Shown here: piece by piece, positions 1 through 20,014 of the stretch | How the letters are laid out: every line of letters starts with the position of its first letter | How positions within the stretch are numbered: position 1 is the stretch's first letter | Program-made: the position numbers and the translations under genes | IMG/VR virus record: IMGVR_UViG_2579778894_000022 | DNA: 32,120 nucleotides | From: a virus | Lineage: Duplodnaviria > Heunggongvirae > Uroviricota > Caudoviricetes | Reading direction: 5' to 3' (one strand) | The notes under the pieces: model-generated | What the model saw: only the letters and a program-made list of their open reading frames with translations | What the model was told of the DNA's origin: nothing | The model's database searches: none

Positions 1-570
1 CGCGCCGTTCTGGTTTTTCTGTAATGCGCCAGAAGCCTGATTTACCGTTTCCTGCAAACCGAGGTTTTGGATAAACAGCGGCTTATTGGGAATATCTGCT
101 CCGTTCCGGTCTTTTGCCAGACGGGCACTGGCATTATCCATCGCAATTTTCACCGCTTTTGCGGTGGCTGCCAGCGTTTCACTGGGGCTGTCAGTGGCAC
201 TGGTTAGCTGAACGAGTCCTTTTTTGTTCAGGCTGGCATCATAAATATCCAGATTTTCACGTGCTGTACGCTGTGCTGATGCCCCGGCAGTTTTAATTTC
301 GCTGAGGTTATTTTTTATCAGCAGTGCGTTATTGCTCATAATGGCTTTAATGGACAGTGCAAGCTGGTTTAATTTTGTTTTATCCGGTTGAATACCGGCT
401 TCTTCCAGCGTGTTTAATAACTCCGCCTGCACAATATTAAACCAGTCCATGCCGGGCCATGTGATAACATTATTCCCGTCACCTTCTGAAAACCAGCGAA
501 CGATAGCACTACGCTGGGCGGATACGGGCGGCATGACGGTTACGCCGCTGTCGTTATCAATATAAAACAT
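1..570 (-). CDS. S: Tail fibre protein S, N-terminal constant part (partial; 3' end runs off the window into the G segment)
   Basis: ATG at 570..568 overlapping the upstream stop (TAATG). The frame is open on the minus strand to position 1 (MFYIDNDSGVTVMPPVSAQRSAIVRWFSEGDGNN...). It follows the baseplate genes and contains the gix site. Not in the ORF track because no stop lies inside the window. Confidence 0.8.
   Translation of the reverse strand, partial: MFYIDNDSGVTVMPPVSAQRSAIVRWFSEGDGNNVITWPGMDWFNIVQAELLNTLEEAGIQPDKTKLNQLALSIKAIMSNNALLIKNNLSEIKTAGASAQRTARENLDIYDASLNKKGLVQLTSATDSPSETLAATAKAVKIAMDNASARLAKDRNGADIPNKPLFIQNLGLQETVNQASGALQKNQNGA
49..74. other. gix-like site-specific inversion site (Gin/Hin family crossover site) at the constant/variable junction of tail-fibre gene S
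   Basis: 26 bp TTCCTGCAAACC-GA-GGTTTTGGATAA: two imperfect inverted 12 bp half-sites around a central GA dinucleotide, matching the hix/gix family pattern as I recall it. It lies inside the S reading frame, as expected for the Mu G-segment boundary. Confidence 0.75.
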
Positions 571-1112
571 TAGTTATCTCCGTCATGGTAAACAAATTTA
601 TAAATCTGATGCGCGGGTTTATATTTCTCCAGTAAACATTCCAGCGCACCCGATTCATAAACACGTAACGGCGTCAGAACATTATCCAGCACCGTTGCGT
701 TGCGATAATTTTTAATACCGTAAATATTGACCTGCGTAACCCACTGGCCTTCTGTGGAATCCGTCAGCCTGACGGTAAAACCGTACTGCGCAGCCAGCCA
801 TTCATAAAAGCGCCGACTCAGATTGCCGGTCATACGCATTTTATTCGCGGCAGCCCGCTGGCGTTCGGACAGGGTGCCGTTTTCGCTTGTACAGTCCGGC
901 AACCCCAGAAATGATTCCCATTCACCCAGATACCAGCGGGATGTGGACGGGAAACGCTCCCGCAGCATTTGTCGCGCATCATCCGCCGCAGTGGCAATCA
1001 CGTCGCTGATGGCCTGCGCCAGCGCAGATAATTTGCTGTCGGGGCTTTTATTCCAGGCAAGCCCTGACGGCAGTAATTGCAGAAAGGCCGTCTGCCAGGG
1101 TGTTACAGCCAT
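570..1112 (-). CDS. Tail/baseplate-associated protein (Mu gene 48 position)
   Basis: 180 aa ORF between the baseplate J-like gene and the tail-fibre gene; stop/start overlap with S. Confidence 0.75.
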   Translation of the reverse strand: MAVTPWQTAFLQLLPSGLAWNKSPDSKLSALAQAISDVIATAADDARQMLRERFPSTSRWYLGEWESFLGLPDCTSENGTLSERQRAAANKMRMTGNLSRRFYEWLAAQYGFTVRLTDSTEGQWVTQVNIYGIKNYRNATVLDNVLTPLRVYESGALECLLEKYKPAHQIYKFVYHDGDN

Positions 1113-2185
1113 TCAATTGTCCCCGGTGTTAACAGTTCCGTATTCTCCGAACGCTGGATCTCTGTCGGGAAACGCACTTCAAAATCATCCAGACCGGTAA
1201 CACCTGCCACCGCACGGATAATACGGGAGGGGGCAAGTGCGCCGCCCGGCGTCACCTCATTAAAAAACATGGTATTAATGGCGTGGGTAATAGCCTGTTT
1301 CAGTTCGGCTGTCTTCGGTGATATATAAATCCGTGGATTTACCGGCTTTGCCTTTGGCGCAAATACAGTGACATTTACACCGTCAGGCTGTCCGACAATC
1401 AGACCGGTGATCGGGTCAGTATGACCGGCGATATAATCCGCCACGCGTTCCACGTCTGCCGGTTGTGGAAAAATATTGCTCCGGTTATCCATAACAAACG
1501 TCACCCCGACTGTGCCACCGCCTTTCCATGTCGGAAAACACCAGGCACGGGTAACGCCGCTGACTTCACGCGCCCAGCGAACATAATCAAACTGATTACC
1601 GCCGAACGGAGGATACTGGACACGATATTCCAGCCGTGACAGCAGCTCCGCTGCACTCTCAATATCAGCCCCACCGGAAAACCCTTTTACAGTGATGGCA
1701 TCGGAAACAACACAGGCAACCGGGGTGATCAACGTTAAAAGGGTATTCTCACCGGTATTTCCTGCTTCACCGGCAGCCAGTGCGGTAACGGTAATTTCCG
1801 TCGTTCCTGCACGGTCAATCACAATGGCATCAGCCAGGCTGTAAACCACACCATCAGCACGCTGCCAGCGTGTACCGGCAGGAATGGTGGTCGCTGCCGA
1901 TGTGGTGACAGTCAGCGGGCCGCTGGCGGCTGTCGCCTGTTTGCGGCGCACGCCCCAGAACCGGCAGTGCTCCAGCAACTCATCTTCATCTGCTGTCGAC
2001 GGGATAATCTGCCGTCCAACCCATGAAATATGCTCGTGACAACCGGCAGCAAGGCCCGCCTGAGCATAAGCAATGGCACTCAGCGTTTTTTCACGGGCCT
2101 GAGGCCAGCTACCCGGCAGGCGCTGTTCAATATTCTGTTCTGTACGGGCAATCAGCGATGATAATGTCGGTGGTGAATAAGCCAT
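1103..2185 (-). CDS. Baseplate J-like protein (Mu gene 47 position)
   Basis: 360 aa, in the baseplate cluster; size and position typical of the baseplate J family. Confidence 0.8.
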   Translation of the reverse strand: MAYSPPTLSSLIARTEQNIEQRLPGSWPQAREKTLSAIAYAQAGLAAGCHEHISWVGRQIIPSTADEDELLEHCRFWGVRRKQATAASGPLTVTTSAATTIPAGTRWQRADGVVYSLADAIVIDRAGTTEITVTALAAGEAGNTGENTLLTLITPVACVVSDAITVKGFSGGADIESAAELLSRLEYRVQYPPFGGNQFDYVRWAREVSGVTRAWCFPTWKGGGTVGVTFVMDNRSNIFPQPADVERVADYIAGHTDPITGLIVGQPDGVNVTVFAPKAKPVNPRIYISPKTAELKQAITHAINTMFFNEVTPGGALAPSRIIRAVAGVTGLDDFEVRFPTEIQRSENTELLTPGTIEWL

Positions 2186-2623
2186 TTAAACCCCGTTAAA
2201 TGCTGCTTTAAACTCATAAGGAATAACGGAACCATCCGGTAATGTCAGTGCAATGTAGAGGTATAACCAGCCCTGATGTAACTGTTCCGCTCTGACGTTA
2301 ATCGCACTTACCCGGCCCGCTGTTTTCAGCCATTCCAGCGCCTCTTCGGCATACCCTCTGGCGCGTTCCAGCGTATCCGGTGTGGCTTTTTCACGTGATA
2401 ACAGCCACAACCGCGAACCGATGGGGCGGTCGCGGTAACTGTCACCCCACCATCCACGGCGATCATCTGAACCATCCGGCAGCGTGTCAGAATCCAGCGC
2501 GCGCCGGTCTGTAAACAGGGAGATTGTCACATCGGTTGTCAGGCTGTCGTCGGTCAGCATATCAATGCCATCCTGTGCAATATCGCCGCGTCCGTTCGTC
2601 CAGATAATGGCTAAATCGGTCAT
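2186..2623 (-). CDS. Baseplate wedge protein (gp25/W-like, Mu gene 46 position)
   Basis: 145 aa acidic protein immediately downstream of the spike gene, tightly packed with its neighbours. Confidence 0.75.
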   Translation of the reverse strand: MTDLAIIWTNGRGDIAQDGIDMLTDDSLTTDVTISLFTDRRALDSDTLPDGSDDRRGWWGDSYRDRPIGSRLWLLSREKATPDTLERARGYAEEALEWLKTAGRVSAINVRAEQLHQGWLYLYIALTLPDGSVIPYEFKAAFNGV

Positions 2624-3213
2624 TGCATTGGCCCCGTGGTTCCGCCGCTGTCGCCACGGTGGATATGCTTATCCGTCGATTTGCCATTGATGATGGCATC
2701 CGGGGCAGTAATATTGCTGTCGAACTGGCTTTTACCTTTAACGCCCAGACCTTTCTGGATCTCAACGTCGCCGGTAAACGTGGTTCTGGGTGTGTCAACG
2801 GTCATACTTTCATCAGCGTAAACCTCAACCGTTTTACAGGTAATGATGCAGCGTCCGTCCTTTGTCAGCCTGATACGATGCCCCTCGTGGTGGTAAATGC
2901 CTGCATCACCCGGTTCAAGATTTGTCGGGCGGTAGCGGCGGTCTTCCACCACAACGGCAATCCCCTGATCACGTTGTGCGCCTACACAGGCAATCAGCGC
3001 CTCTGCTCCCGGCAGGGGAACGCTGAAATGCCCGTAATTTTGCAGGCGCTCCACTTCATCAGATTCCTCATCATCCAGCAGGCCGACCTGCAGGTTCTGA
3101 ACCTTTCGCCCGTCGTTAATCACGTTAACAACAGCGCGCGCAAGCATCAGGCGCACACGACGCATCAGCGGCGTCAGCAGGCGGTTCAGGGCGGAATCAT
3201 TTACTCTTTCCAC
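2620..3213 (-). CDS. Baseplate spike/assembly protein V-like (Mu gene 45 position)
   Basis: 197 aa; overlapping stop/start with neighbours; position between hub and wedge genes. Confidence 0.75.
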   Translation of the reverse strand: MERVNDSALNRLLTPLMRRVRLMLARAVVNVINDGRKVQNLQVGLLDDEESDEVERLQNYGHFSVPLPGAEALIACVGAQRDQGIAVVVEDRRYRPTNLEPGDAGIYHHEGHRIRLTKDGRCIITCKTVEVYADESMTVDTPRTTFTGDVEIQKGLGVKGKSQFDSNITAPDAIINGKSTDKHIHRGDSGGTTGPMQ

Positions 3214-4340
3214 GGCGGCGTTTTCTCCGGGTGTCTGCGATAATAATCTTCAACCAGCGCATCAATACCGCCGTTACTGTCGCCGCCTTTCCTGTTTTTA
3301 CGGTCGCTTTCAACCGGCACCAGAAAGCCTTCGCGTGGTGCAAGGCTGACGCGGGTTTTCAGCCCGTCCTGGTCATTCAGTATCAGGGTGACTTTGCTGA
3401 CCAGTAATTCCGTGGTTTTGATGGCATATTTCGAGGCATCAATAGTGACCAGCAGGTTCGGCATCCAGAGTTGCCCGTCCTTGCGAGTCCATCCGTCAAT
3501 TTCAGCCTCAAAGGTGATGGATTTTGCCAGTCTGCGGCGTTGCTCACGCAGGGCGCGGGCCTGTGCATCCTTCGCCGTAATTTTGCTGTCAGCAATGATG
3601 ATCATCGGTCTGTAACGGGTTACATCACTGTCAGTGGCGGTCCCTTTCCGGGAGACGATACTTTTCGCATCAATATCATCACCCTCAGCACCGTTTGCGC
3701 GGGCATACCCCTTGACGGTGTATTCGCTGAACCGGTCGCGGAAGTCTTCCTCAAAATCCAGTGTCAGCAGATTTTCTCCGAGAACCAGCTCATCAGTGGC
3801 TGTGCTGGCAGCCCGGCTGAATACCAGCTCTCCTGCGGCATTGCTGGTCATCAGTACACCGCGTGCGCGGGAGGCACGCACCAGCGCCTCATAAACGGTT
3901 TCTGAATGGTCCAGCGTGAAGCCGGGAAAAGCTGCCGAACTTTCCTTATCGGAAAGCTCCCAGCGAACGGTAACGCCATAAGGAGCGCACAGGTCACGCG
4001 CAATCTGCTCCAGTGTGCGGTTTTTCCACTGTCCGCCACTGTAAACGGCAGCACAGTCAATCAGGTCAGCCGTTTTGTCACGTCCGGCGATAGTGATTTT
4101 CATGCTGTCAGCGGTCATCTGGCGTCGCCGCGAATCGATATAACCGGTGCAGACAATCTGCCCGTCGATTTCCAGCGTGAACGCCTTCCCCGGTGCCAGC
4201 CCGGATAAATCTGTACCCGGTGGCACATTCACCCCCAGCTCAAAATATCCGGCTACGGATTCAATGGAGCGGGTGACAGAGACTGACGTCCAGCCGGTAA
4301 AAAGCCTGCCATCCGTTCGCAGCGTGACGGTATTACTCAT
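3201..4340 (-). CDS. Baseplate hub / tail protein (Mu gene 44 position, P/late-control-D-like family)
   Basis: 379 aa ORF in the conserved myovirus tail order after the tape measure and circularization genes. Confidence 0.75.
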
Positions 4341-5820
4341 TAATCACCTCAATACTGACACCACCGGGAACAAACAACGGGTTGCTGATACCGTTCCTGC
4401 GGGCCAGCCGTTGCCAGTTCCGGCTGTTTCCTGTGTAACGGTACAGAGCCACCATTGCAGGCATCGTCTCCGGCAGGCGGTGCGTTTCACTGCCTGCCAG
4501 TTGCAGCCCGCGTTTTTCCAGGTCGGCAACAACCAGCAGACGCAGTTGCGTAAGCTGAACGCTGTCTGTCGAAAAGCCCTGCTCAGATGCCGTCAGAATG
4601 ACGGTATCCAGCGCTGCCCCCAGCATGGCGGCTGTTTTTCCGATATCGGACACACTTTCAAATACCGGGGGCGTGGCTGTACCACTGTCTGAAAAGGATA
4701 CCTGTGAAAAGCCGCCGTCCGGGGTTATGGCAGTTAACTGTAACTGTCCCTGTGTGACGGTAGCGGATGTGCTGCTGGCCCCGCTGGCTGTGCCGGTTGT
4801 GGTGGACGGGGCATCCAGTACAGGTGCACGGGCGGCATTATCCATCCGGCGACTGAAATCCAGTGCCGCAGTCAGTGCCTGGCTTGCTGCCTCCGCCCGG
4901 TATGTCTGTGCTGCTGCCAGCATGACGTAGTTCAGTGTGGCAATATTTTTTTCTGCAACCGGACTGTTGTACGAGGTTGTGATTGTCCCCTGTCTGCCTG
5001 CGGTGGCGGCATGGCGACGTTCGAATCGCTGCGCCAGACGGTTCCATGTGGAAAATGCTGTCCGGGTATCGCATAACGATGAAACGCCGGACAGCGCCCC
5101 CATCAGCGAGGAGGCCAGCATGGCAGGCTGGTTAATCAGGCTGGTCACAGAGCCTTTCATCGCAGAAAGCGATCCCATCAGACCGCTGACAGTCTGCGTA
5201 ACCCCCAGATTGTCCACCGCATCACTGATATCATCGATGACACCGGTTACAGCTTCCATCACGGCGGTTGCCGCCGCAGTGCCATCTTTTACGGTCTGCC
5301 AGACAGAGGACAGCGTATCTCCCAGAGAACCGGTTACAGCAACGGCCTGTGCCGGTACGGCTGCACTGGTGTCTGTCTCTGAGTCCGGGGCAGTATCCTG
5401 CAACGACGGATAAACGGTAACGGTGAACGCGTAATAATTCAGTTCATCCGCTTTAGTGCGGCATTCCCATGAATCCACCATGACGTCCACAGTGCCGAAA
5501 TCAGGATGTACCAGCTCACCGCTACCCGGAGCATCAAGAGCATCCATCAGCGCACCCGCTTCATCTCTGGCTGTTTCTGCGTTGCTGTTCAGAATGCAGG
5601 CGCTGAATGTACGGGAGCGAAGCTTTTTCCCCAGGTCATTGACGCCGCCGGTATCACGTAACGGGTACTCGCGTTTAACCAGGCGACGTCCGCCAGCCTG
5701 TTTTTGCTCCTCGATGACGAGAAACGGCACGTTACGAAACGTGCCTTTGCCGGTTGTTTTCTTACCACCGCTGATTTTATCCCGGACAGCATTAACGGCA
5801 TTTAAAGCATCTTCAAACAT
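4333..5820 (-). CDS. DNA circularization protein family (Mu gene 43 position)
   Basis: 495 aa; N-terminus [19 protein letters not shown]...; Ala/Thr/Ser-rich central region; directly follows the tape measure gene. Confidence 0.75.
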
Positions 5821-5824
5821 GGTT

Positions 5825-7897
5825 TTACCAGCCTGTAATGTAGTTATCGCCCGCGTAAATATTCAGCCCCATACCGTCCTCGGTGACGCGGGAACTGGTC
5901 AGACGTAACCCCTCGGCAAGTTCGACGCGCAGCGAGGCTTCCGCATTCACTTTTTGTTCCTGCGGTTCCTTATCCGGGGCCGTCCATTTCTGATACAGGT
6001 CGGTTACAAAACCGCCCAGATACTCCCCGGCGACACTGCCCAGCGTGGCACCGGCAACCGTACCCAGCGGTCCGGCAAGGCTGCCAACGGCACCGCCGAG
6101 CCATGCACCGGCTGTACTGCCAATTGCGCCTGCTTTTTCATGGGTTGACGCCTGCTCATCCATCAGGACGGGGGCAAGCTGGAGTGCCCCCATTACCGGG
6201 CCACCCAGACGTGACAACGCACGACCGGCACCTTTCCCCATCCAGCCCAGCGCCCCGGCACCTTTTGTCACAACCCGACCGATCGCACTGCCTGCAAGTT
6301 TGTTTCCGATACCGGAAAACCACCCGCCAACAGCACGCCCGGCATCAGCCAGCTTTCCGACCGTTCCCGTAACCAGTTGCCCGGCAGCACTGCCTGCAAG
6401 CCTGCTCAGAAGACCGGATTTACCGGGTAAAGGTAATGGTGCAGGCCGTGCTGTTACCGGTACGCCGGGTGGGGGTAATGCCAGTACAGGGCGTGGTGCA
6501 GGTAATGCCAGCGGCTGTGGCCCGGACAGCAATAACGGCTGGCGGGGTAACAGCGGGGCCATTCTTCCGCCGCTCCGTCCGCGACGACCGCCGCCACTCC
6601 CGTAGCCACCAAATCCACGGGGCCAGTTGATGACAAACACACGCTGAATGCCGATACCCTGCAACAGCGTCTCAGACGTCATGGCATCCGGGACCGGCAG
6701 ACCTGCCTGCCCACGTTTGCGGTTTCGCATCCAGCGCCACATACGACGCCCGGTTTTAAACGGATAACTGGCAACCTGCCATGAGGGTTTTGCCACGGCC
6801 CAGCCTGCTCTCAGGGCTTTATTGGCAAGCCAGACAGACACCAGAACAGCAGCCAGTTTTTTCAGGCTGACAATATTCTGGTCAACCCATGCCAGCGCAT
6901 CTTTACCCGGTTTCAGCCAGCGCCATAATTCCTGCGCCGCGATTTTTACCGTTCTGAACGTGGTCAGAAATTTCTGACCAATGTTTTCTGCCAGTGCGTC
7001 AAGTTCCCCGGATTTATCCGCCATGTCGTGCCAGTTAAGCACCCGGCGCATCTCGTTCTTGATTTCTTCAAAGGGGCCGCTGTTTGCCACCTTTATGCGA
7101 AATTCAAGCAGGTTAGCTTCCATCTGGGCGAACATCCCGTCCCAGGAGTTCATCGCACTGGCCTGTGCACCTTTTGACTGTTCTGACAGCGTTCTGAATA
7201 CCGTCAGAATGGATTTCAGACCCAGCTTGCCTTTTTCACCTTGTTTGCGGATATCCTTAACGTCTTTACCCAGTGCATCCGCCAGCGTCTGGTAAACGTT
7301 AATACCGTAACCGGTCAGCAGGTTGGCATCCGCCGCCGTGATTTGCTGGCGGGCAAACATCTGTTTCAGTTGCAGTGAGGCACCCTGTGCAGTGGGTAAA
7401 TCCCAGCCGTGCATGGCCCCCTGATCCTGCAACATGGTGATGAACTGTTTCGTCTGTTCATCCGTCATGCCGAAGCCTTTCGACGAACGGATCTCATCCA
7501 GAACACCACTCAGCCCCCACGTGGTGTCCTTCGCGTTCTGCTTTGCCCAGGCCATCATGGCCTGCGCTCTGACCTTATCGCCGTGATACAGCGAGTTCAT
7601 GGCGATAATTTGCTGCTCACGCTGGGCGGCTGCACCAATAAACAGTTTATTGGCGGTGTAACCCACACCAGCGATACCCAGCGCCCCGGCTGACAGCATT
7701 CGGAATGTACGGGTTGACAGTGAACCCATTCTGTCAATGGCACCAGAAACGCGCACAACCTCCATACGCAGGGCACGAAGGGAACTTTGTCCGCTACGGG
7801 ACAGGGCGTTTATCTGGTTCGAATACTGGCGGGAACGCCGGGAAAGATTGCCATTAAGATCAATAATGACAGACGCCTTTAAGCGTTTCCCGGTCAT
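5825..7897 (-). CDS. Tail tape measure protein
   Basis: 690 aa, the longest tail ORF. It has a helical N-terminal half and a Gly/Pro/Ala-rich low-complexity C-terminal half, and sits downstream of the sheath, tube and chaperone genes. Confidence 0.85.
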
Positions 7898-8041
7898 AGA
7901 GATTTCCTGATTTAACGGTGATATTGAGAGAGGGTTTTAGCCTGCTGGCAGTGCCGGAAAAAGCGGGACAGCGGGAGGGATAAGGCCCATTCCGGGCCAC
8001 TTTTCAGAATAACGCCAATCGCTGTCGCCGCTTTCTCAATA

Positions 8042-8476
8042 TCATTCCGGCACCGCAGCCACTCGCCCCCGTTCTTGTGTCAGCGATGCCGCCACAGCCA
8101 TGTCGTACATTTCTGTAGCCAGCGACAGACGCTGGAAGTCATCAACAGACAGCTTGCGCATCAGCGCCAGCGATAACGGGCCTTTGATGCAACCCACGCT
8201 GGCAATCTGTCGGCGCAGCATTTCCAGTCCCATCCGGGACGGGGAACTGACCAGCACCGGGCCTTCCTTGCTCATTACCAGCTTTTCAGCAGCCGCCTGG
8301 GCATCAATCAGATCGCCTGCGGTCAGTTCACGCAGCGTCACGTCATACTGCATTTCAGTCTCGTCACCGGTGCCGAACGGCAGGCCGTCTTTCAGTTTCA
8401 GCACGCCGGACTGAATTTCTGCCACAATGCTGTCATGCAGTTCCTGTGCTTCAGGACCTAAATTCATTTCGTCCAT
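8042..8476 (-). CDS. Tail assembly chaperone-like acidic protein (Mu gene 41 position)
   Basis: 144 aa, strongly acidic, located between the tube and tape measure genes, which is the canonical chaperone position. Confidence 0.65.
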   Translation of the reverse strand: MDEMNLGPEAQELHDSIVAEIQSGVLKLKDGLPFGTGDETEMQYDVTLRELTAGDLIDAQAAAEKLVMSKEGPVLVSSPSRMGLEMLRRQIASVGCIKGPLSLALMRKLSVDDFQRLSLATEMYDMAVAASLTQERGRVAAVPE

Positions 8477-8485
8477 TGTTTCCCC

Positions 8486-8842
8486 TTATGCAATGCGTTT
8501 GCTTTGTTTTGCCATCAGTACCAGCGAAATTTCGCCGCCGTCGTTTTTCGGTTCATCTGCCTGCCAGGCATTCGCCATCATCCAGGTTTCACCGGTGTCT
8601 GCCTGAAACTCTGCCGTGATGTTTTCCCAGCCGATGATTTCATCCAGACCGATATCACCACCGCCCGGAATTTTGCATTCCAGCTTTGCGGCACGTGGTT
8701 TACCTTTCCAGCCATAAACCCGCGAGCCGGTCACTTCTTCACGGGTGATACCGGAAGGCGTGAAGGAGGCACCTTCCATCGTTTCAAGCTCCATGCCATT
8801 GACACGGATGAACGCCACCCCCTGACGCTGATTTCCAGCCAT
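8486..8842 (-). CDS. M: Tail tube protein
   Basis: 118 aa ORF immediately downstream of the sheath gene, the conserved myovirus sheath-tube pair. Confidence 0.8.
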   Translation of the reverse strand: MAGNQRQGVAFIRVNGMELETMEGASFTPSGITREEVTGSRVYGWKGKPRAAKLECKIPGGGDIGLDEIIGWENITAEFQADTGETWMMANAWQADEPKNDGGEISLVLMAKQSKRIA

Positions 8843-8851
8843 AAATGCTCC

Positions 8852-10339
8852 TTACAGAATGAACTGAACTTGTGCCGCGAAAATGCGGAACTGGTTAATC
8901 AGATTCGGGCCGCAAAGCACATCAAGACGGTCTTTGTCGTCCTTGTTACGTGCCACATACAGCTCCTCTTTGAACGTGTCGAAATCCTCGACCAGTCCGG
9001 CGTTTTCCCATTCTTCAAACAGTGCCAGCAGCTCCGTTTTGATCACGGATGGCGTCACCACGGCCTGACCGGTGGCAAAGCGGGTGCCATCACTTGCCAG
9101 CTTGTAGTTCGGGAATTTCTGCGTGATGCGGGTTCGCAGTGAATAACGCAGATAACTCAGCGTGGCGATGGTATTCACGTTCAGATAAGACGGATCACTG
9201 TCACCGTACTTGTTTGTGCGGTACATCGTGATCATGCGTTCAATCTGCATTTCACCACCATCATTCACGTTAAACGTGGAGATGCCGTCAAACAGCAGCG
9301 CATTACGTTCTGACCAGGTGAAACGATCCCCCACCGCAGGCGGCATTCTTCCGGGCAACGTCAGCGTCTGGAGAGGACGCGCCGGGTCGATGGAAAGCGC
9401 CTGGCTGGCAACGGCACACAGTGTGGCGGCGTACAGATATGACGGTTCCGGTGCACCGGCAATCCCCATACAGGAGATCAGATGATCATTACGACTGACA
9501 CCAAACGTGGAAATATCCCCATACGTGCCGGACAGCACTGTCACAGCAAAGCCATCAGCCTGATTGACCGGTCCCCAGCGTTCCTGCAATTCAGTGCGTA
9601 ACAGATTCAGGTTCGGTTCATCGGTATAGGGCATCACAATATATTTGTATTGCAGATCGCCCATTCCCGCGATACTTGCGCTGATATCCGGGTTGCCATT
9701 TTTACCGGAGGCGGCTTTGAATGCCGTGATAATCCCGTAAGGGGTGGTTTCACCCGCGTAATAGTTCCAGCGCACATCCACGGCAGATAATGCACCCGTA
9801 AATTTTGCACTCAGAACCACATCTGCATGGGTGTCATCATCTCCGCTGTCTGCGCGAACTTCTGCCGTCACCGGTAAATCCGGCTGGCCTTTGATTCGGG
9901 CAACCAGCAGGTCAGCCAGCGCAGCCCCTTTTGTACCTGCTGCGACGGATACCGCCAGTCGCTGACCGGCAATATAGGTCACAAGCGAGCCGTTTTCGCC
10001 TGCCGTTCCTGACAGTGAGATTTCACCGACAGCAGCATTACCGGTGCCGTTTCCCTGCGGGATACACCACAGCTCCGCCACGCGGTTAGCGTTCAGGAAT
10101 GCATCTGCCATCAGTGCCAGCATGGAACCCTGACCAAACGCCGCACTGGCCTGTGAGCCGGAACGGATACGGACAGGCACGTTCGGTGCGGCACTGGCTT
10201 TACTTCCGCTTTGCCCGAACATCAGCACGCGCTGGCGGGGAGCCGGTGTTCCGCTGACGGCATTGCTGTTATCAAATTCGATATACGTCAGAGGAACGCG
10301 AACATCTGACGGGATCGCGTTAAATGAAATATCGCTCAT
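8852..10339 (-). CDS. L: Contractile tail sheath protein
   Basis: 495 aa, followed by a 118 aa tube gene; size and context typical of sheath proteins. Confidence 0.85.
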
Positions 10340-10542
10340 TTCGATTTACTCCGTTTTTTCGGCGCAGCGTCGGTATCATCCGCCGTGTTTTCGGTGCTCC
10401 CGACTTCAACCACATCACCGGCTGCAAGGCGACGTATCCAGAAACTGTTACGGGGCTTTTCTTCTCCCTCCGGAGCCAGTAATTTCATCGTGAGCGGGTC
10501 ACGGATGGCTTTTCCCGCTGCGGGTTTAATTTTCAGCATCAT
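10336..10542 (-). CDS. Small virion-module protein (Mu gene 38 position)
   Basis: 68 aa ORF with stop/start overlap to neighbours, Lys-rich C-terminus. Confidence 0.55.
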
Positions 10543-11074
10543 GATCCTTTTCCTGATTCACATTGATATGTGCGGCAAATTCCGGGGTTTCGTCCGGGAA
10601 TTTCCAGGTCTGCCAGTGACGCTCGTAATCATCCAGCGAATCCATGTCCACCACGGACGGCAGCGGGGTAGTGCCACTGAACAGAACGCCGTAAAGCACC
10701 ACACCGGCATTAATACGGTTGTCGTCACAAAGATTTCTGACCTGCGTCAGTCTCATCCCGGTGGTCGGGCCAAACGTCTGACCGTTAACACCGGCAATCA
10801 GTCGCTCCACAATCTGATAAATACCGGGCCGGTTTACCGGTTCCCCGTTCAGCAACTCCGCCACGACAAAAAATGCCCAGCGACTTTCAACTTCCCGACG
10901 CGTACGCCCCTCACCACAGCCCATCCATGCCAGAAATACCGATGGAGGGGCCAGAAAGAGACGGTGCACATCCTCGTTAGTCCATGTGCCGGTAAGGGGT
11001 TCCACCTGCCGCAGGGTTGCCCCAAACAACTCACGAACGCGCGCCAGCAGTGCGGCTTCGGTTTCTTCCAGCAT
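10526..11074 (-). CDS. Head-tail joining / tail completion protein (Mu gene 37 position)
   Basis: 182 aa ORF between the connector-like gene and the sheath. Confidence 0.65.
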   Translation of the reverse strand: MLEETEAALLARVRELFGATLRQVEPLTGTWTNEDVHRLFLAPPSVFLAWMGCGEGRTRREVESRWAFFVVAELLNGEPVNRPGIYQIVERLIAGVNGQTFGPTTGMRLTQVRNLCDDNRINAGVVLYGVLFSGTTPLPSVVDMDSLDDYERHWQTWKFPDETPEFAAHINVNQEKDHDAEN

Positions 11075-11499
11075 CAGATAAACCCCTTCTGTTTTCGTGA
11101 GAAGACCGGCGCGTCAGACTGCACCTGCACAAGGTTTTCACCATCCGGCGAGGCTGCCGTCCTGCTTTCCACGCCGGGATCTGTTTTGCCATCGCGCACC
11201 TGTTCCAGCCAGCGCACTGTGTCCCTGTAGGCAGCGGTGATCTGCTCGGTGGGTTGTGATTCATTCAGATAAAACCAGGCCACCACGCAACACTGCCGTT
11301 TCAGCAGTGAGGGGACGACGGTAAGCGGCAGAACAAAGCGCGCGGCGAGATAGCCATCAATAAAGGCCGAAGCATCTGCCAGTGCCTGTTCTGCCACGGC
11401 ATCATCCGGCTGCCCGTCCGCTGTTTTAGGGCGGGTGAGAATATCCAGCCGCGTACGTGTATAGCGGGCGCACAGGTCATTTACCGTCGCGTAATTCAT
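11074..11499 (-). CDS. Head-tail connector/neck protein (Mu gene 36 position)
   Basis: 141 aa; start overlaps the upstream stop. Confidence 0.65.
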   Translation of the reverse strand: MNYATVNDLCARYTRTRLDILTRPKTADGQPDDAVAEQALADASAFIDGYLAARFVLPLTVVPSLLKRQCCVVAWFYLNESQPTEQITAAYRDTVRWLEQVRDGKTDPGVESRTAASPDGENLVQVQSDAPVFSRKQKGFI

Positions 11500-11906
11500 G
11501 CATCCGCCTCAGCCAGCGCCGCTTTGATTTGCGCGCTGCTTACCGGTTCCCCCAGCGCCGCACTGAGGGCTTTCACTTTGGGTTCTCCTCCTGCGGTAAA
11601 GTGTTCCGGGTTTGCCTTATCCAGACCGGCAACGGTCGCACGGATACGGGCGTTCAGATCGCCCACACCCAGAACGTCCAGCCCCCCAGCCTCAGCGAGC
11701 GTTTCTGCTGACGATGCAGATACCACAGACAGCACGCTGTCGGCACGAATGATCGCCAGTTGTTCTTCGGTGACTTCCACGGTGTTTTCGCCACGTGTAA
11801 AGGCGATTCCGGCGCGGCGGTAGACCGGACGAAGGCATTTAATAATCGCCGTGCAAGTGATGCGAGAAGTGTCCAGCCATTGTGAATTAAGCGAAGTGCC
11901 TGACAT
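11496..11906 (-). CDS. Head-associated protein (Mu gene 35 position)
   Basis: 136 aa with a strong RBS (AAGGAGGAG, 8 nt spacer, ATG); immediately downstream of the major capsid gene. Confidence 0.65.
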   Translation of the reverse strand: MSGTSLNSQWLDTSRITCTAIIKCLRPVYRRAGIAFTRGENTVEVTEEQLAIIRADSVLSVVSASSAETLAEAGGLDVLGVGDLNARIRATVAGLDKANPEHFTAGGEPKVKALSAALGEPVSSAQIKAALAEADA

Positions 11907-11937
11907 AACACATGCTCCTCCTTTTCCTTTAAATCAG

Positions 11938-11967
11938 GTTAAAAGGCGGTCTGAACCGCCTTTTAAT
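11938..11967 (-). terminator. Intercistronic stem-loop after the major capsid gene (candidate attenuator or RNA stability element)
   Basis: AAAGGCGG-loop-CCGCCTTT dyad followed by TTTTAA on the minus strand, between the T stop and the next RBS. Confidence 0.3.
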
Positions 11968-11972
11968 GACGG

Positions 11973-12890
11973 TTACAGGTAGTCAGCGACAACCAGTTGC
12001 AGCTTGCCCTTCATCTCGTTGGAGACGGTGGTATTGCCATCCGCGAACAGTTCACGGTTAAGCAGTTGCTCTGCGGCTTTTTCCAGCCCGACCGGTACAA
12101 CGATATGCGTCGGCTTCAGGCCCAGCTTCTTACCGCCATCACCTTCAAAAGATCGCATCAGTTGCCAGCCCTTCCAGAGGTTATCCAGCGTCAGATCGCC
12201 TTTTACCGCGACAGCCATCTGCCAGAAGCCGTAACCGGCAGCACGGCGGGCGCTGGCACCAAACAGGAACTCGTTATCCATAAAAACGTGGTCGTCATCG
12301 ATACGGGTACGTGCGACCAGTTCCGGTTTGCGGCGCTCCTGGAAAATCAGCGGTTTGACTGCGCGGGAGCAGTCCAGCAGATAGAATGGCAGACCGCTGA
12401 AGCTGTCCTGCTCAACGATGTTGGAGGTATTAACCGCGCTGCCCGTGCCGTCCACATTCGGATATACCGGATGCTCCTTGTCGAAGAAGTTCTGACCGTC
12501 ATAGCAGGGCTGGGTAAAGCCATCTTTCAGAAGTTTAAAAATCAGCTCATCCGGCTGAACTGCCGCAGAACGGCCCATCTCCTGAAAAATCGGCGCATAA
12601 ATACCCAGATTGTCATCCTCGAAGTCATCACGGGAAATACCCACGGTGCCTTCAAACGTTTTATTGGCGATGGAGTAGCCATGCGCTTCCATTTGCTGAA
12701 TGGTTCGCTTACCCACCCATTCTTTCAGGGTCGGGAATTTACCCAGCCAGCCATAGGTATTACTGCGGGTGGAAGAGTTCACCACCATTGCAATTTTGCT
12801 GTACTGCGACGGGGCGTCTTCAAGACCGCCCTGAAAATCCTTACGCCAGGAGGTCATCAGGGCTTTAATGGATGCCGGGGTGACAATCAT
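11973..12890 (-). CDS. T: Major capsid (head) protein
   Basis: 305 aa, downstream of the protease/scaffold gene, followed by a stem-loop; matches Mu T in size and position. Confidence 0.85.
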   Translation of the reverse strand: MIVTPASIKALMTSWRKDFQGGLEDAPSQYSKIAMVVNSSTRSNTYGWLGKFPTLKEWVGKRTIQQMEAHGYSIANKTFEGTVGISRDDFEDDNLGIYAPIFQEMGRSAAVQPDELIFKLLKDGFTQPCYDGQNFFDKEHPVYPNVDGTGSAVNTSNIVEQDSFSGLPFYLLDCSRAVKPLIFQERRKPELVARTRIDDDHVFMDNEFLFGASARRAAGYGFWQMAVAVKGDLTLDNLWKGWQLMRSFEGDGGKKLGLKPTHIVVPVGLEKAAEQLLNRELFADGNTTVSNEMKGKLQLVVADYL

Positions 12891-13972
12891 TTTTCTTGTT
12901 CCTGTTTCATTTTCAGATACTCAGCCTCTGTAATGCCGAGCGCCTTCACTGCTGCCTGTTCATCAGCAGACAGCACCGCCACAGCCGTTTTTTCCTGCGA
13001 CGGGATTTTCGCTGTGGTGGTCTGCATGGCAGATAACGCAGCGATGGGCTGTTTTTTCTCAAGCTGTGCCGACAGTGCCGCCACGCCAATCTGACCGCCA
13101 AGCTGTTCCAGATAGGCACGTTCGCTTTTGAAAATGCGGCCTTCCTGTTCCGCCTTGTCCAGAACGGCGCTCAGGCTGGCTGTGGCGCTTTGTGCAGTCG
13201 CCTGTGCCAGTTCATCACGCAGGGCGTTGTAGCTTTCCACCGGGACGTATTTCGTCAGGTCAACGGCGGCTTTCTGTGCCTTTTCCAGTTCGGCGGATAA
13301 CGACGCCACTTTTCCGGCATCTGTTTCGAGCGCATCAAGCGCACTCAGGGCCGCGCTGGCCTGTTCATCGGTGATGTCTGCATTTTCGGGGACCGTCACC
13401 CCAAGACGCGCAAGCAGCTTGCGCAGCGTTTCATTCATGGGTTTGTTCTCCTGTTGAAGGATGTCGGGAAGGTCTGCCGCCAGTGCGGTCAGCTTTTTCA
13501 TGCCGGTGGCACCGGGGTCATTGGTCAGCGCAGCAAGGCGGATTTGCAGCACCGCACCGGTGGCGGTGTCATACGGAAAAACCGCAGAGAGATAACCAAA
13601 TTCACCGTCATCGATGCGCTGCTGTGCCGCCGCCGTCCAGCGTGGGTGGATAAATAATCCTTCACCTTCACGCCACTGCATTTCATCGGCGTTAAACCAG
13701 CCAGCCGCGACGAGTTGTTCCGGGGGTAATCCTTTGTCCTTACGTAGCTGGTTATGCTCGTAATCAATCAGCACGTCCTGGTTGAGCGCGCGAACGCCTT
13801 CAACCAGACGCCCGGCAATCTCACCGTCGATGAACCACCCCTGACCACCTGTCACATCAAACGGACGACCATCACGGGCACTGAAATGACCGGCAGGCAA
13901 TAGCTGGCACCAGCCGTCATCGTCAATGGACAGCGCACTCAATGCGGCAATGCCAATCGCGTGTTTTTTCAT
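12887..13972 (-). CDS. I: Head maturation protease / scaffold protein (the C-terminal coiled-coil part corresponds to scaffold Z in Mu)
   Basis: 361 aa; globular N-terminal domain then an Ala/Leu/Glu/Gln-rich coiled-coil C-terminal half (ELEKAQKAAVDL...AEYLKMKQEQEK). Confidence 0.8.
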   Translation of the reverse strand: MKKHAIGIAALSALSIDDDGWCQLLPAGHFSARDGRPFDVTGGQGWFIDGEIAGRLVEGVRALNQDVLIDYEHNQLRKDKGLPPEQLVAAGWFNADEMQWREGEGLFIHPRWTAAAQQRIDDGEFGYLSAVFPYDTATGAVLQIRLAALTNDPGATGMKKLTALAADLPDILQQENKPMNETLRKLLARLGVTVPENADITDEQASAALSALDALETDAGKVASLSAELEKAQKAAVDLTKYVPVESYNALRDELAQATAQSATASLSAVLDKAEQEGRIFKSERAYLEQLGGQIGVAALSAQLEKKQPIAALSAMQTTTAKIPSQEKTAVAVLSADEQAAVKALGITEAEYLKMKQEQEK

Positions 13973-14168
13973 GTCCTGCTGCTCATCATGGTTTGTGAGC
14001 AGTCAGTTTGCGGGAGGTGCGGGAAAATCTGGGGTTATGCTATTTGAGTAATGGAGAAAGAAAGTGGAAGGAAGATAAAACGGGATTCATACACCGTTAA
14101 ATACCGGTTTAAAAATCCCGTGGCGCGTTTTAAAAAATCTGTGCGGCTGATTTTATGCCTGATTCTGT
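13973..14168 (-). promoter_or_regulatory. G-I intergenic region: candidate C-dependent late promoter and candidate central strong gyrase site
   Basis: 196 bp non-coding gap, the only large one in the virion module. It contains a tandem GCGGGAGGTGCGGGA element sharing a 10-mer with the lys upstream region, plus a stem-loop just after the G stop. The promoter and gyrase-site roles are assigned from what I recall of Mu biology. Confidence 0.5.
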
Positions 14169-14639
14169 TTATTGCCTCAGAGCGACGCTGACGCGTTTTC
14201 TGATGGCATCAAAAATTTCCTGTTCCCCGGTCTTATCCAGCCCCATATAAGGACGCGCAGGAACGCCTGCCGGGCGGGGTGCCATATCGGGTGTACCGCC
14301 CCACTGATGAATGGCAGCATAAATTTTTGGCGAACCAATCAGGGCATAATCCTGTCCATAATCGGTGGTAATGCTGCGTGCCAGATCGCCATGCAGGGTA
14401 AGGATACTGCCCGGAACAAAACCATGATCCTGACGCCATGCCAGCCACGAATCGCTCCACGCTTCCCAGCCTTTCCCTGTATCCGGGTCTGCCTGCCGTT
14501 CAAATGCCTGTTCCGTGGATGACAGCAGCGCCGCAGCCATCACACGGGGAATGGCGCGGTCACGTGTAACGGTTCCCAGTTCATCCAGTGCAAGCTGAAT
14601 ACGTCGCACATCCACGGCAACGTTCATATCAAGACTCAC
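14169..14639 (-). CDS. G: Virion morphogenesis protein
   Basis: 156 aa ORF between F and I. Confidence 0.75.
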   Translation of the reverse strand: MSLDMNVAVDVRRIQLALDELGTVTRDRAIPRVMAAALLSSTEQAFERQADPDTGKGWEAWSDSWLAWRQDHGFVPGSILTLHGDLARSITTDYGQDYALIGSPKIYAAIHQWGGTPDMAPRPAGVPARPYMGLDKTGEQEIFDAIRKRVSVALRQ

Positions 14640-15955
14640 TTATTCACCTCCACATGCCCCTCCAGTACGTCAATCATCCCGTCAGCAATCGCGGCTTCAA
14701 GCGACTGTGCAGATACGCGGCTGATACTGACCAGCACATCCGCACGGTCATTCTGCCTGCCGACTGTCTGTGATGTTCTGACCACAATCCGGGCCATGCC
14801 GTCACGGGTTGCCACAACATACAGCAACTGGTGGTTCTCCCTGTCCCACAATACCGCCTGTGGTTTTGCCATCAGCGACGGCAGACGCTGTAAATCTTCC
14901 GGTTTCAGGGCGGCATCAGCAGTGGTCGCCAGACTTTTCCCGTTCATCACAAGCAGACGGGCTGGCATATTCCCGGTGCGCTGATGTACGGCTTCAGCTA
15001 CCGATTCCGTCATAAAACCCAGTGCCCGGATTTCATGACCGGTCTGACGTAATCCTGCCAGGCGTTTAAGCCAGAGGGAAAAAGCAAGCTGACGCTCCCG
15101 GCTGTTATTCAGCGTCTGAACAACCTGCTCACGCAACTGCGCGTCGCGAATTTCCACCAGTTTTCGAATCAGTGCCTGATCCGTACCAAATGCCGCCGAA
15201 CCGGGGTTATATGACCAGCCCACATCCGGCGTCATTTTTACCCGACCGTTGTCAAACGTGGTTGACGATGTGCGGAAAATCTCGCCGGTGCTTTCATCCG
15301 TACCGGCATCCACTTCGCGGGTATTCATGAATGACGCACCATAACTGACCTGTAACCCCAGTTCTTTCATGCGGGCCGCAGACAGCGCCCGGACGCGACA
15401 GCGGCAGTTCCAGCCATTGGGCGGGTAATGCGTCTGCCAGAAAATGTCGTCATACCGGAAAACCATATTGTGCAGCCGCGCATGTTCCGGGCGTGTTCTG
15501 CCATCCATAACGGCAATGTACTGCCAGTACGGGTACAAATCGGCGGTATTCATCATCTGCGCATAACGTCCTGCCCCATACGCCGTACGGGTATTGACGT
15601 TATAAATGGTTGCCAGACGACGCGGACTGCCCAGCTCGATTACCTTTGCGTTTCCGTCTGCATCCACGATGATTTGTTTTCCCCACCATCCGAGTTTTTG
15701 CAGCCGGGGGGCCAGTGTGCGGGTAAATTCCTCACGGGTGATGCCTTCACTGACAGCCCGCTCCACTTCCTCACGGATTGTGGTCAGTACATCCATCCGG
15801 GTGGCTTTGGCAACGGTAAAGGCGCGTGCGTGCGCGTCTGCCAGTTGTTCGTACCAGTTCCAGGTGATGTTGTAGCCTTTGGCGCGGAAATACGCGACAG
15901 CCTCCTTTGGCGGGAGGCGTGCGGCATACGCCAGATCAATGGTCTGCTGCGGCAT
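14636..15955 (-). CDS. F: Head morphogenesis protein (minor head protein, SPP1 gp7-like)
   Basis: ATG at 15955 preceded by GGGGG; the GTG at 15991 used by the ORF track has no RBS. 439 aa from this start; follows the portal gene with a short overlap. Confidence 0.75.
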   Translation of the reverse strand: MPQQTIDLAYAARLPPKEAVAYFRAKGYNITWNWYEQLADAHARAFTVAKATRMDVLTTIREEVERAVSEGITREEFTRTLAPRLQKLGWWGKQIIVDADGNAKVIELGSPRRLATIYNVNTRTAYGAGRYAQMMNTADLYPYWQYIAVMDGRTRPEHARLHNMVFRYDDIFWQTHYPPNGWNCRCRVRALSAARMKELGLQVSYGASFMNTREVDAGTDESTGEIFRTSSTTFDNGRVKMTPDVGWSYNPGSAAFGTDQALIRKLVEIRDAQLREQVVQTLNNSRERQLAFSLWLKRLAGLRQTGHEIRALGFMTESVAEAVHQRTGNMPARLLVMNGKSLATTADAALKPEDLQRLPSLMAKPQAVLWDRENHQLLYVVATRDGMARIVVRTSQTVGRQNDRADVLVSISRVSAQSLEAAIADGMIDVLEGHVEVNK

Positions 15956-17474
15956 CCAGACGCCCCCATATATCGGCAACAAAAATGGCACGGGTCAGCA
16001 TGTCGATAAGTTCTGCATCATCCATCTGCGGATATAATGAAGCAGCTTTGTTCATGGCGGCTTCCGGGCCATCTTTCAGCACAGAAAAAATGACGGGTTT
16101 CAGCAGGGGATCAACCGAACGCTGCCAGTCTTCCGGTGAGACGCCCATCCGGTCGATATCATCCTCCTGCGGGATATCTTCAGCGGATAATGCGGCCTCT
16201 TTCTGCGGACCGTTATCCATGACGACCGGTTGAGCAGTAAACACGGCTTCATCACCGACCGGCTGTGGAATATGAAGTTTTTCCTGTATCCAGGAGACCG
16301 GAATACGCATTCCCGCCGCCAGTTTCGGAATGGCGTCAGACAGTGCCGTAATATCACCCGCTTCACTGGTATCAAATACAATGCCCGGCAGGCGGTTAAT
16401 ATCAATGGTGCTGTCACTGTTCAGTGCCAGCAGGGGATAAATCAGGTCACGGTTAATACTGCGGGCAAGCTGGCCCACATCCGCGTTACGGATTTCCCGG
16501 CGAACCTCATCATGCACTTCACCCAGCGACCGTGCACCTTTATCGCCAGCCTCTGTGGTCAGGGTGCCGCCCAGAATGGCTTTTGAAATCGCTTTTTCTG
16601 CCCAGCCAATCATCGCCATAAAGGGATCAGACTGACCATCTGCGGCGCTCTGAAAATCCAGCGTCATCCCCATCGGAATAATGCCACCGGCACGTCGCCC
16701 GATATCCATCACGGCCTGCATCAGCGTGGCTTTTTCGCGGTTTGTGGAGCCGGTCGGATATTTACCGACGCGCATGGGGAGTCCGTAAATTTCCAGGAAC
16801 TCCGCAAAATCACGCACGGAATAGTTTTTAAAAATAAAAGGCCAGATAAGCGTGCGCACAAGGCCATTGGTGCCAACGTACCCGGTGCGGGATTTGGCCC
16901 GGTGCATAAACCAGCCGAATGGTTGCAGCTCCAGCCCGTGATAAGACGTATCACGCAAACGTAATTCGTTCAGATTATCGGGGTTCGCGCAGAACAGCGC
17001 CGGATCGCGATGATGCAGCGCCACCGGCACGCGCATTTTTCCCAGCCAGCCCCATTCAATCTCCTGCATGGAATAACCCTTGAGAATGGCATCACCGGCA
17101 TCAAACAGGGCATCTTCAAACCACGCCGCATCATGCAGATATTCATTCAGCATGTCAGCGTCTTTTTTCTCCTGTGCGCTGGCATCACGTGCCGGAGCGA
17201 TGCGCCATTCCAGCGCCTGAATGGCAAGGCGGCGTTTGCTCAGTTCGGAAAAAAGGTGGGTGTCCTTTTCTTCCATATCAAAGGCCAGGTCAGCCTGTGC
17301 TGTCAGATCACCGCGTTCGGCATCACGCAGCATCTGCGCGGCCCGGTTTGGCGTCACGCCACTGGAAGGATGCTCCTGCGTGCGCTTCATGACCATTGCC
17401 AGCTCATCGCTGCGGGTCTGCATTTCATCGTCAAAATCAAACGGCTGCCCGGAAATATCCAGAATACGGCCCAT
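15936..17474 (-). CDS. H: Portal protein
   Basis: 512 aa; ATG overlaps the terminase stop (TAATG); position terminase-portal-F is conserved. Confidence 0.85.
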   Translation of the reverse strand: MGRILDISGQPFDFDDEMQTRSDELAMVMKRTQEHPSSGVTPNRAAQMLRDAERGDLTAQADLAFDMEEKDTHLFSELSKRRLAIQALEWRIAPARDASAQEKKDADMLNEYLHDAAWFEDALFDAGDAILKGYSMQEIEWGWLGKMRVPVALHHRDPALFCANPDNLNELRLRDTSYHGLELQPFGWFMHRAKSRTGYVGTNGLVRTLIWPFIFKNYSVRDFAEFLEIYGLPMRVGKYPTGSTNREKATLMQAVMDIGRRAGGIIPMGMTLDFQSAADGQSDPFMAMIGWAEKAISKAILGGTLTTEAGDKGARSLGEVHDEVRREIRNADVGQLARSINRDLIYPLLALNSDSTIDINRLPGIVFDTSEAGDITALSDAIPKLAAGMRIPVSWIQEKLHIPQPVGDEAVFTAQPVVMDNGPQKEAALSAEDIPQEDDIDRMGVSPEDWQRSVDPLLKPVIFSVLKDGPEAAMNKAASLYPQMDDAELIDMLTRAIFVADIWGRLDAAADH

Positions 17475-19129: not shown

Positions 19130-19136
19130 AACCCTC

Positions 19137-19712
19137 TCATGCCTTACCCAGCAGCACATCACGGATACGCTGCTCCAGCTCTTCGCTGATGCCATCCTGC
19201 CCGCGCAGTTCTTCACTGACGGCGTTTGCCGCTTCTTCTGCGAATGCCTGGCGGATTTCTTTCTCGCGCCGGTGGCTGGACATTGCCGTGGATTCCAGAC
19301 GCTGTGCCGCCAGCATGGCATTTTTCAGCAGGTCAATATCCACGTCAGATTCCGGGTTTTCGATTTGCCGCATCATGGCCTTAAAAAGCTGGCTGCGGGC
19401 CATTTCCAGAATCAGCTTTGTGGTTTCTCCCATTGGCTTGTCGCCAAGTTCTGCGGTCAGTGCTGACGTCATTTCACGCATCTGTCGCAGGTTATGGCCT
19501 ACCTGCTCGACGTTCGTCGCGTAACGGTTCAGACCGGAACGGGAGAGTTTCATCTCATCCGGCAGGCCAGCGTCTTCAATCAGTGCGTTAATTTCTTCCA
19601 GAATGCGGGCCTGTGGGATCGCTTTATCACGCAGCATTTCATGCAGCGTTTTACGTACGTTTTCCGGCAGTAAATCCACTTTTGAAGCCCGGCCCCGTGT
19701 TTTCCTGTCCAT
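19137..19712 (-). CDS. Putative terminase small subunit / DNA-packaging protein (Mu gene 27 position)
   Basis: 191 aa from the ATG at 19712 (AGGAGG 4 nt upstream); helical, charged; immediately upstream of the large terminase. Confidence 0.6.
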   Translation of the reverse strand: MDRKTRGRASKVDLLPENVRKTLHEMLRDKAIPQARILEEINALIEDAGLPDEMKLSRSGLNRYATNVEQVGHNLRQMREMTSALTAELGDKPMGETTKLILEMARSQLFKAMMRQIENPESDVDIDLLKNAMLAAQRLESTAMSSHRREKEIRQAFAEEAANAVSEELRGQDGISEELEQRIRDVLLGKA

Positions 19713-19723
19713 CACGCCTCCTG

Positions 19724-20014
19724 TCATGCACGGGGACGAGGACGCTTGACACCGGCAACGCGGGCACGACCTTCTGCCACATCCTGACCTCGGGAGGTCA
19801 GCGTTACGACATAAAAGCCGCGCAGGTTTTCCACGGTGACCAGTTGCTGCTCTGCCAGCCAGTCAATCTGGCCGCGAACCACATCGCGGGAAACGTTGTG
19901 TCCGTATGCATCCAGACAGTCCTGAAGGATGGATTCGTTTGCTTCGTTATTGCAGTCCATCAGGGAACGCAGGATGACCAGACGACGGTCTTCGGTCAGA
20001 ATATCGTTAATCAT
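19724..20014 (-). CDS. Small winged-helix-like protein (Mu gene 26 position)
   Basis: 96 aa ORF with overlapping stop/start to neighbours. Confidence 0.5.
   Translation of the reverse strand: MINDILTEDRRLVILRSLMDCNNEANESILQDCLDAYGHNVSRDVVRGQIDWLAEQQLVTVENLRGFYVVTLTSRGQDVAEGRARVAGVKRPRPRA

Follow-up and report, generated by a model that had tools for sequence, protein, structure and literature searches.

Since the early 1980s, the G segment of bacteriophage Mu, its invertase Gin and the gix crossover sites have served as a textbook case of how phages set their host range by programmed inversion of DNA. Dimers of Gin bind two inverted gix sites that lie ~3 kb apart, one of them next to gin. 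The switches of the Din family share sites with a 12-2-12 layout, a serine invertase, and a Fis-dependent enhancer, and Cin, Pin, and Min likewise exchange the C-termini of tail fibers within the reading frame. Din invertases cross-complement, such that the enzyme acting on a site is a separate question from the identity of that site. On supercoiled DNA, Gin dimers and a Fis-bound enhancer in the 5′ part of gin assemble into a synaptic tetramer (the invertasome), the catalytic serine introduces double-strand breaks with a 2-bp stagger at the core, and religation follows once one dimer has turned by 180 degrees; as the core is not palindromic, recombination between inverted sites has to yield inversion (PMC3575834, PMC3241671). 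The published gixL and gixR sequence is TTCCTGTAAACC GA GGTTTTGGATAA, with strand breakage and exchange occurring at the two middle bases, and the core is GA in gix and bix and AA in hix, cix, pix, and mix (PMC3241671 Table 3). Inverted repeats of 34 bp have been described for the G segments of Mu and SfMu (PMC4406740).

The DNA analyzed here, referred to as the window, is a stretch of 32,120 bases. Judged from its alignments, the window is a Mu-type genome, ~98% identical to Mu and presented antisense; it starts within the G segment and reaches back as far as the stop codon of c, the repressor gene. Window positions 36..22108 correspond to Mu (AF083977) 31991..9921 at 98.0% identity, and positions 22925..24490, 24783..27400, and 27668..32120 correspond to Mu 9218..339 at 94.7–98.5% identity (local alignments), with Mu 4791..339 aligned at 98.5% within these last blocks. 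Order and identity follow Mu from 339 to 31991 apart from short replaced stretches, and the open reading frames of the window match Mu gp42–gp48 in size and order. The first 3 kb are 98.9–99.1% identical to Mu, D108, SfMu, Mu_3F6, and the Yersinia Mu-like phages. The features of interest are collected in Table 1.

Table 1. Positions of the crossover site, the tail-fiber gene, and neighboring genes in the window, and of the paired sites in two relatives (the latter in the coordinates of each relative).
Feature	Position	Strand	Evidence or remark
S (Mu gp49), 5′ 190 codons, cut by the window edge	1..570	-	Open frame; Phage_fiber_2; 8ju3_A; DNA 98–99% identical to Mu, D108, SfMu, and vB_YpM_6
Arm-specific start of the variable part, S′ class, codons 178–190, QASGALQKNQNGA	1..40	-	38/40 to Mu S′v
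Inverted repeat of G, 34 bp: gix extended into G by 8 bp (ACGGTAAA, S-sense)	41..74		Common to both ends of Mu G; arms diverge beyond
gix site in gixL position: 12-bp half-site, 2-bp core, 12-bp half-site	49..74		25/26 to gixL/gixR
Single-base difference from Mu gix	55..55		T to C, synonymous, Leu172
Core dinucleotide at which crossover occurs: GA (TC in the S sense)	61..62		Equivalent to Mu 31966, annotated 'G-segment boundary'
Sc, constant N-terminal part of S, outside the invertible segment	63..570	-	Aligns with Mu 31458..31966
gp48 (180 aa), baseplate wedge gene directly upstream of S	570..1112	-	Pfam Phage_Mu_Gp48, E=1e-27; size and order as in Mu
gp47, gp46, gp45	1103..2185, 2186..2623, 2620..3213	-	Size and order as in Mu
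gp44, gp43, tape measure	3201..4340, 4333..5820, 5825..7897	-	Size and order as in Mu
E. coli FDAARGOS_1059 (L002)	Proximal gix 9048..9073; distal gix 5958..5983		3,090 bp apart; recombinase 5310..5903
E. coli RMDEC465 (L010)	Proximal gix 5048..5073; distal gix 1973..1998		3,075 bp apart; proximal site is the exact window 26-mer; recombinase 1325..1918, then com, mom

The first-pass annotation had placed a 26 bp dyad of the Hin/Gin type near the left edge of the window, and the sequence read there directly, TTCCTGCAAACC-GA-GGTTTTGGATAA (i.e., TTCCTGCAAACCGAGGTTTTGGATAA), bears this out, with 25 of 26 bases identical to the published gixL/gixR (PMC3241671 Table 3); the Mu record has two copies of gix, and the count is the same against each. 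Allowing up to three mismatches, the 26-mer has no second match on either strand of the 32,120-base window, and it was absent from 100 dinucleotide-preserving shuffles of the window. The palindromic center AAACCNNGGTTT occurs once in the window, within this site, against an expectation of 0.07. The half-sites are symmetric at 7 of 12 positions (counted by hand), an imperfect dyad of the kind found in Mu itself. The sole departure from Mu gix, T to C on the plus strand, falls at position 7 of the G-internal half-site and converts the codon TTA to TTG. The functional pix and mix sites have C at the same half-site position (PMC3241671 Table 3), and the equivalent base is polymorphic among relatives and moves along with the inverting segment. 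The GA core and the bases beside it are unaltered. The same 26-mer, without any mismatch, occurs in vB_YpM_6, in four IMG/VR contigs, and at loci L010, L014, L016, L017, and L018, while an exact search of the genome contig collection did not return it; the exact 90-mer of window 1..90 was found in none of the genome, viral, and metagenome contig collections. From its sequence, the site is very probably gixL, the gix next to Sc, in the invertible G segment of a transposable phage or prophage of the Mu type. The element is thus a known one: a near-identical relative of Mu carries the G-segment switch of Mu, and nothing departs from that switch except a synonymous inner half-site polymorphism common to relatives.

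In the Mu record the two gix copies lie at 31954..31979 and 35012..35037, and the annotated G boundaries, 31966 and 35025, are their core positions. The core of the window site is homologous to the first of these boundaries. The earlier reading that the window starts inside an invertible G segment was sound, and the segment is of the Mu type. Counted strictly, from the core dinucleotide, the window contains ~60 bases of G and not 48. No inverted partner gix or other Din-type site occurs anywhere within the 32,120-base window, which is what a partner located beyond the left edge would predict. Seven long-range inverted repeats reported in the window are short, imperfect, and unrelated to gix.

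The S frame begins at an ATG that overlaps the stop codon of gp48 as TAATG and remains open for 190 codons on the minus strand, ending exactly at base 1; S does read straight through the site to the window edge, as had been proposed, and the remainder of S, with its variable part, and the tail-fiber assembly gene lie past that edge. The site is in frame and spans codons 166–174, from the second base of Phe166 through Glu174, such that the core forms the last two bases of codon Leu170. Based on a Pfam match to Phage_fiber_2 at residues 113–153 of the 190 and on the gene order of Mu, the fragment represents the N-terminal part of the tail-fiber protein S. It aligns over residues 1–190 with PDB 8ju3_A, a Mu S/S′ chain of 488 aa (E=5e-118, 394 bits), and over residues 1–187 only with the S chain 5yvq_A (379 bits). 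Mu 31458..31966 is annotated in the Mu record as coding the amino-terminal end common to S and S′, and S′ is there built from 31458..31966 plus 34067..35024. Over Sc, the window is identical to ten relatives at 492–493 of 496 nt. Because gix lies in frame within S, inversion would replace everything after codon 170 together with the downstream chaperone gene; the residues encoded by the repeat do not differ between the arms, and the replacement would therefore be effective only after residue 177.

The orientation of G had been regarded as impossible to determine from the window, and here the analysis disagrees. The arms of G diverge past the 34-bp repeat, which ends at base 41, and bases 1..40 are therefore arm-specific. 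Read in the S sense, these bases match Mu S′v at 38 of 40 positions versus 17 of 40 for Mu Sv, which points to a junction of the G(-) type, with the caveat that two related segments (L006 and L021) have S′-like starts on both arms. Extended to 48 nt, the match is 47/48 to the S′ arm of L002, L004, L010, L017, and L019 and 23–26/48 to other arms. At the protein level, residues 175–190 agree with S′ of L002 and L004 at 16 of 16 positions, with Mu S′ at 15 of 16, and with Mu S at 8 of 16. In the Mu reference, which is G(+), the counterpart of window 2..74 is 34965..35037, at the end of G nearest to gin. The E. coli W assembly with an Sc-S′v junction (488-aa fiber, followed by a 177-aa chaperone) matches the window from base 2, and the assembly with an Sc-Sv junction (504 aa) matches only from base 36. 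SfMu, which its authors describe as matching Mu in the G(-) orientation (PMC4406740), matches from base 5.

These comparisons make it likely that the window holds the canonical G(-) S′/U′ configuration, and an Sv-type (K-12-type) fiber is effectively excluded. We infer that the full fiber would be a 488-aa S′ with U′ downstream; a frame leading to a 488-aa S′ and then a 177-aa U′ is present in L002, L010, L011, L013, L017, and L019, while the same S′-like start precedes an S of other length in L004 (485 aa), L006 (530 aa), and L021 (507 aa). The different starting points of the alignments, at base 34–36 versus base 2, are not a clean test of orientation, as the third kind of variable part in L006 shares the start, and for this reason the claim is an S′-class arm with Sv excluded and not a proven G(-) orientation. 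Given that L006 and L021 share the start on both arms, the 40 bases exclude the Sv-type fiber and do not prove a C-terminus of the Mu S′v kind. It should also be kept in mind that one assembly represents one orientation of a possibly mixed population. The host range of Mu in G(-) comprises E. coli C, Citrobacter freundii, Enterobacter cloacae, Erwinia, and Shigella sonnei, and not E. coli K-12 (PMC4406740).

Inversion of such segments is shown among the relatives. For E. coli W, two independent assemblies (NC_017635.1 and NC_017664.1) disagree in the G region at 2,204 of 6,201 aligned positions, and no mismatches remain over 6.2 kb once the DNA between the gix sites is reverse-complemented; the two assemblies differ there only by inversion of G. 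In OY754452.1, an E. coli genome, the same Mu-like prophage occurs twice, at separate places in the chromosome (L016, 1152270..1164812; L017, 1649454..1661996); the two copies have their G segments in opposite orientations and are identical over 11.6 kb after in-silico inversion. In this pair one gix is the exact 26-mer of the window, the second has the T found in Mu, and the base that varies follows G. Breakpoints placed anywhere from the outer edge of the site to the core leave 0 mismatches, and breakpoints at the inner edge leave 2, meaning that the inversion from L016 to L017 needs breakpoints on the Sc side of the base equivalent to window 55. This is the pattern predicted by exchange at the core. 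The pair shows that the site variant of the window is recombination-proficient in a prophage whose Sc is identical to that of the window at 492 of 496 nt.

The relatives, gathered by similar DNA and by the exact window gp48 protein, also supply the parts of the switch that lie past the window edge. The exact gp48 protein is encoded on many contigs, and all 10 of the 10 examined carry the full G-gin-com-mom module, in which two inverted gix sites 2,834–3,081 bp apart are followed by a gene with Resolvase and HTH_7 domains, com, and mom. The full module is likewise present in Mu, L002, L008, L010, and E. coli W. The inverted partner gix and the serine recombinase that the first-pass annotation called for are present in every relative examined, with the partner 2,834–3,090 bp away and a Resolvase+HTH_7 protein of 193–197 aa encoded ~50–130 bp past the distal gix (for the L008 invertase, Resolvase 7e-51 and HTH_7 2e-17 in Pfam). 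RMDEC465 is identical to the window over 2..100, and past its proximal gix it encodes a 488-aa S, a 177-aa chaperone U′, an inverted 175-aa chaperone U, and a silent inverted Sv part. By analogy with these relatives, we infer that the partner gix and gin are probably still present in the genome from which the window derives.

What the window does not span leaves room for other readings of the same junction. It is rather unlikely that the site is gixL as proposed and that the orientation nevertheless escapes determination because both arms of G begin with the same S′-like ~47 bp. Segments of this construction do exist: in the IMG/VR contig L006, the variable part of a 530-aa S starts ETVNLASGALQKNQNGA, 46/48 identical to the window, and the distal arm is S′-like as well, and in L021, whose S is 507 aa long, both arms have S′-like starts, the proximal one matching at 47/48 and the distal one at 44/48. 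Base 1 of the window (G, S-sense) gives GCG instead of GCA, a synonymous difference from every canonical S′ arm that agrees with the third-type proximal arm of L006; a single base cannot decide the type of the arm. Against this reading, the S′-like start is confined to one arm in 13 of the 15 examined related segments that have at least one S′-like arm, and the nearest matches over window 2..100 (RMDEC465 at 100%, vB_YpM_6, and FDAARGOS_1059) are all single-arm S′ types. Of 5,426 complete E. coli genomes, 11 had the Sc-S′v junction, 14 the Sc-Sv junction, and none the Sc-530-type junction (megablast, at least 80% query coverage), counts that hinge on the coverage thresholds and undercount diverged cassettes. 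There is a small chance that the phage has a non-canonical host-range cassette sharing only the S′-like first ~47 bp after gix, as would be the case for fibers like those of L006 (530 aa), L021 (507 aa), and vB_YpM_6 (485 aa).

A different concern is that the site might be a fossil, with an intact gix in a switch locked by a lost or mutated gin, enhancer, or partner, and with the window edge perhaps reflecting a G segment that has been deleted in part or rearranged. Only 48 bases separate the site from that edge, and nothing is visible to the left of base 1; a locked or impaired G has also been discussed for SfMu on account of a 1-bp change beside the core (PMC4406740), and L002, L015, L019, and L022 carry such a change. 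The core of the window and its neighboring bases are intact, however, the ten contigs with an identical gp48 and the five further examples all retain a complete module, and the exact 26-mer took part in an inversion in a near-identical prophage. The sequence edge also has an innocent cause at hand in assemblies that break at the repeat, as L005 and L006 end at or in gix. A fossil site is consequently very improbable. The chance that the dyad is accidental, or that it belongs to another member of the Din family (Hin/hix, Cin/cix, Pin/pix, Min/mix), is close to nil. The C at window 55 is the base found in pix and mix (PMC3241671 Table 3) and the gix-plus-arm module (window 2..74/82) is found in non-Mu prophages, in plasmids, and in the P2-like phage P88; conversely, zero chance matches are expected for this 26-mer, the core is GA as in gix and bix and not AA, the other 25 bases are those of gix (PMC3241671 Table 3), and the flanks are Mu Sc and Mu S′v at 97–99% identity. 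An identity as hix, cix, pix, or mix was ruled out by the core dinucleotide and the flanks.

Compared with the described systems, the window is closest to Mu (AF083977/NC_000929), with which it shares the GA core, the placement of the site in S, the 34-bp repeat, and upstream genes (gp44–gp48 and the tape measure) at ~98% DNA identity, as well as the site and S′v arm at the identities given in Table 1. It differs from Mu by the synonymous change at 55 and, within the 40 bases with which the arm begins, by two further changes that are synonymous or conservative, and where the deposited Mu record is G(+), the window would be G(-). The relatives deposited in G(-), namely SfMu, vB_YpM_6/5, Mu_3F6, E. 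coli W (NC_017635), FDAARGOS_1059, and RMDEC465, match the window from base 2–6 through the junction, but none is identical to it overall (best 98.6–99.1%). vB_YpM_6 has the identical 26-mer, and its 485-aa S has a variable part 75% identical to Mu S′v, while FDAARGOS_1059 has a base change beside the core that the window lacks. The sites of Hin/hix (Salmonella), Cin/cix (P1), Pin/pix (e14), Min/mix (p15B), and PinB/bix, as compiled in a Din-family table (PMC3241671), differ from that of the window in their outer half-site bases, and the flanking genes of these systems are not Mu Sc.

Elsewhere the window is mosaic relative to Mu. Positions 22109..22924 are without a counterpart in the Mu reference, and an open reading frame at 22330..22890 (minus strand), located between the late activator C (21644..22066) and Mor (22973..23362), encodes a 186-aa protein with Glyco_hydro_108 and PG_binding_3 domains in place of Mu gp18–gp20. 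This protein would be a second muramidase beside the Mu-type endolysin, and the same GH108 gene is annotated in E. coli FDAARGOS_1059. At the other end, the window runs out precisely where a Mu-type repressor gene c (31530..32120, plus strand) has its stop codon (Mu position 339), and the attL end (Mu 1..338) is absent from the window. The early region with c, ner, A, and B (29233..32120) is Mu-like at 98.5%, unlike the otherwise similar FDAARGOS_1059 prophage, the alignment of which stops at window 29232. Phages of this group are therefore mosaic in their regions for immunity and transposition.

Several observations on the relatives concern the invertible segment more broadly. S proteins of 451, 469, 485, 488, 501, 504, 507, and 530 aa were found with Mu-like G segments, and variable parts other than Mu Sv and S′v are found on the proximal arms of L007, L014–L016, L018, and L022 and on both arms of L015. 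With one such arm, which starts ETVNKAGNAVQRSGDKM, S is 469 aa long, and with another it is 451 aa long. The cassette diversity of Mu-like G segments far exceeds the two classical fibers. A change of G to C beside the core on the Sc side (S-sense ...AAAACGTCGG..., Leu170 to Val) is found in L002 (9048..9073), L015, L019, and L022 (7039..7064), and a change at this core-adjacent position has been suggested to reduce or abolish inversion in SfMu (PMC4406740); the window site is without it. The combination of gix and ~47 bp of S′-class arm (window 2..74/82) recurs at 91–97% identity in ~290 of the 5,426 complete E. coli genomes, including tail-fiber genes of non-Mu prophages and plasmids of ~48 kb and ~94 kb, and in phage P88 it adjoins a DNA invertase gene. 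From its distribution, the module looks like a portable junction between different invertible tail-fiber cassettes. Lastly, the IMG/VR contig L005 has its gix at 5462..5487 and stops at the last base of that site, and L006 begins inside the partner gix (1..67). Both ends fit assemblies that break at the invertible repeat, and the left edge of the window, which coincides with a codon boundary only 48 bases beyond gix, may likewise be the end of a contig.

Taken through the steps established for Mu, Gin would cut the window at 61–62 and, following the 180-degree rotation, religate the ends, and the resulting inversion would exchange which of Sv+U and S′v+U′ is fused to Sc, producing a switch in host range. 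The window would then have been captured in the G(-)-type configuration, with an S′-class arm joined to Sc. The truncated S at the window edge would be best annotated as an Sc-S′ fusion specifying a G(-)-type fiber, and a contig break at this position is what a heterogeneous invertible repeat would be expected to cause and no sign of a truncated gene. Should the phage instead prove to have a non-canonical cassette, the gix-plus-47-bp module would be a portable handle by which tail-fiber C-termini are swapped between Mu-like, P2-like, and plasmid prophages.
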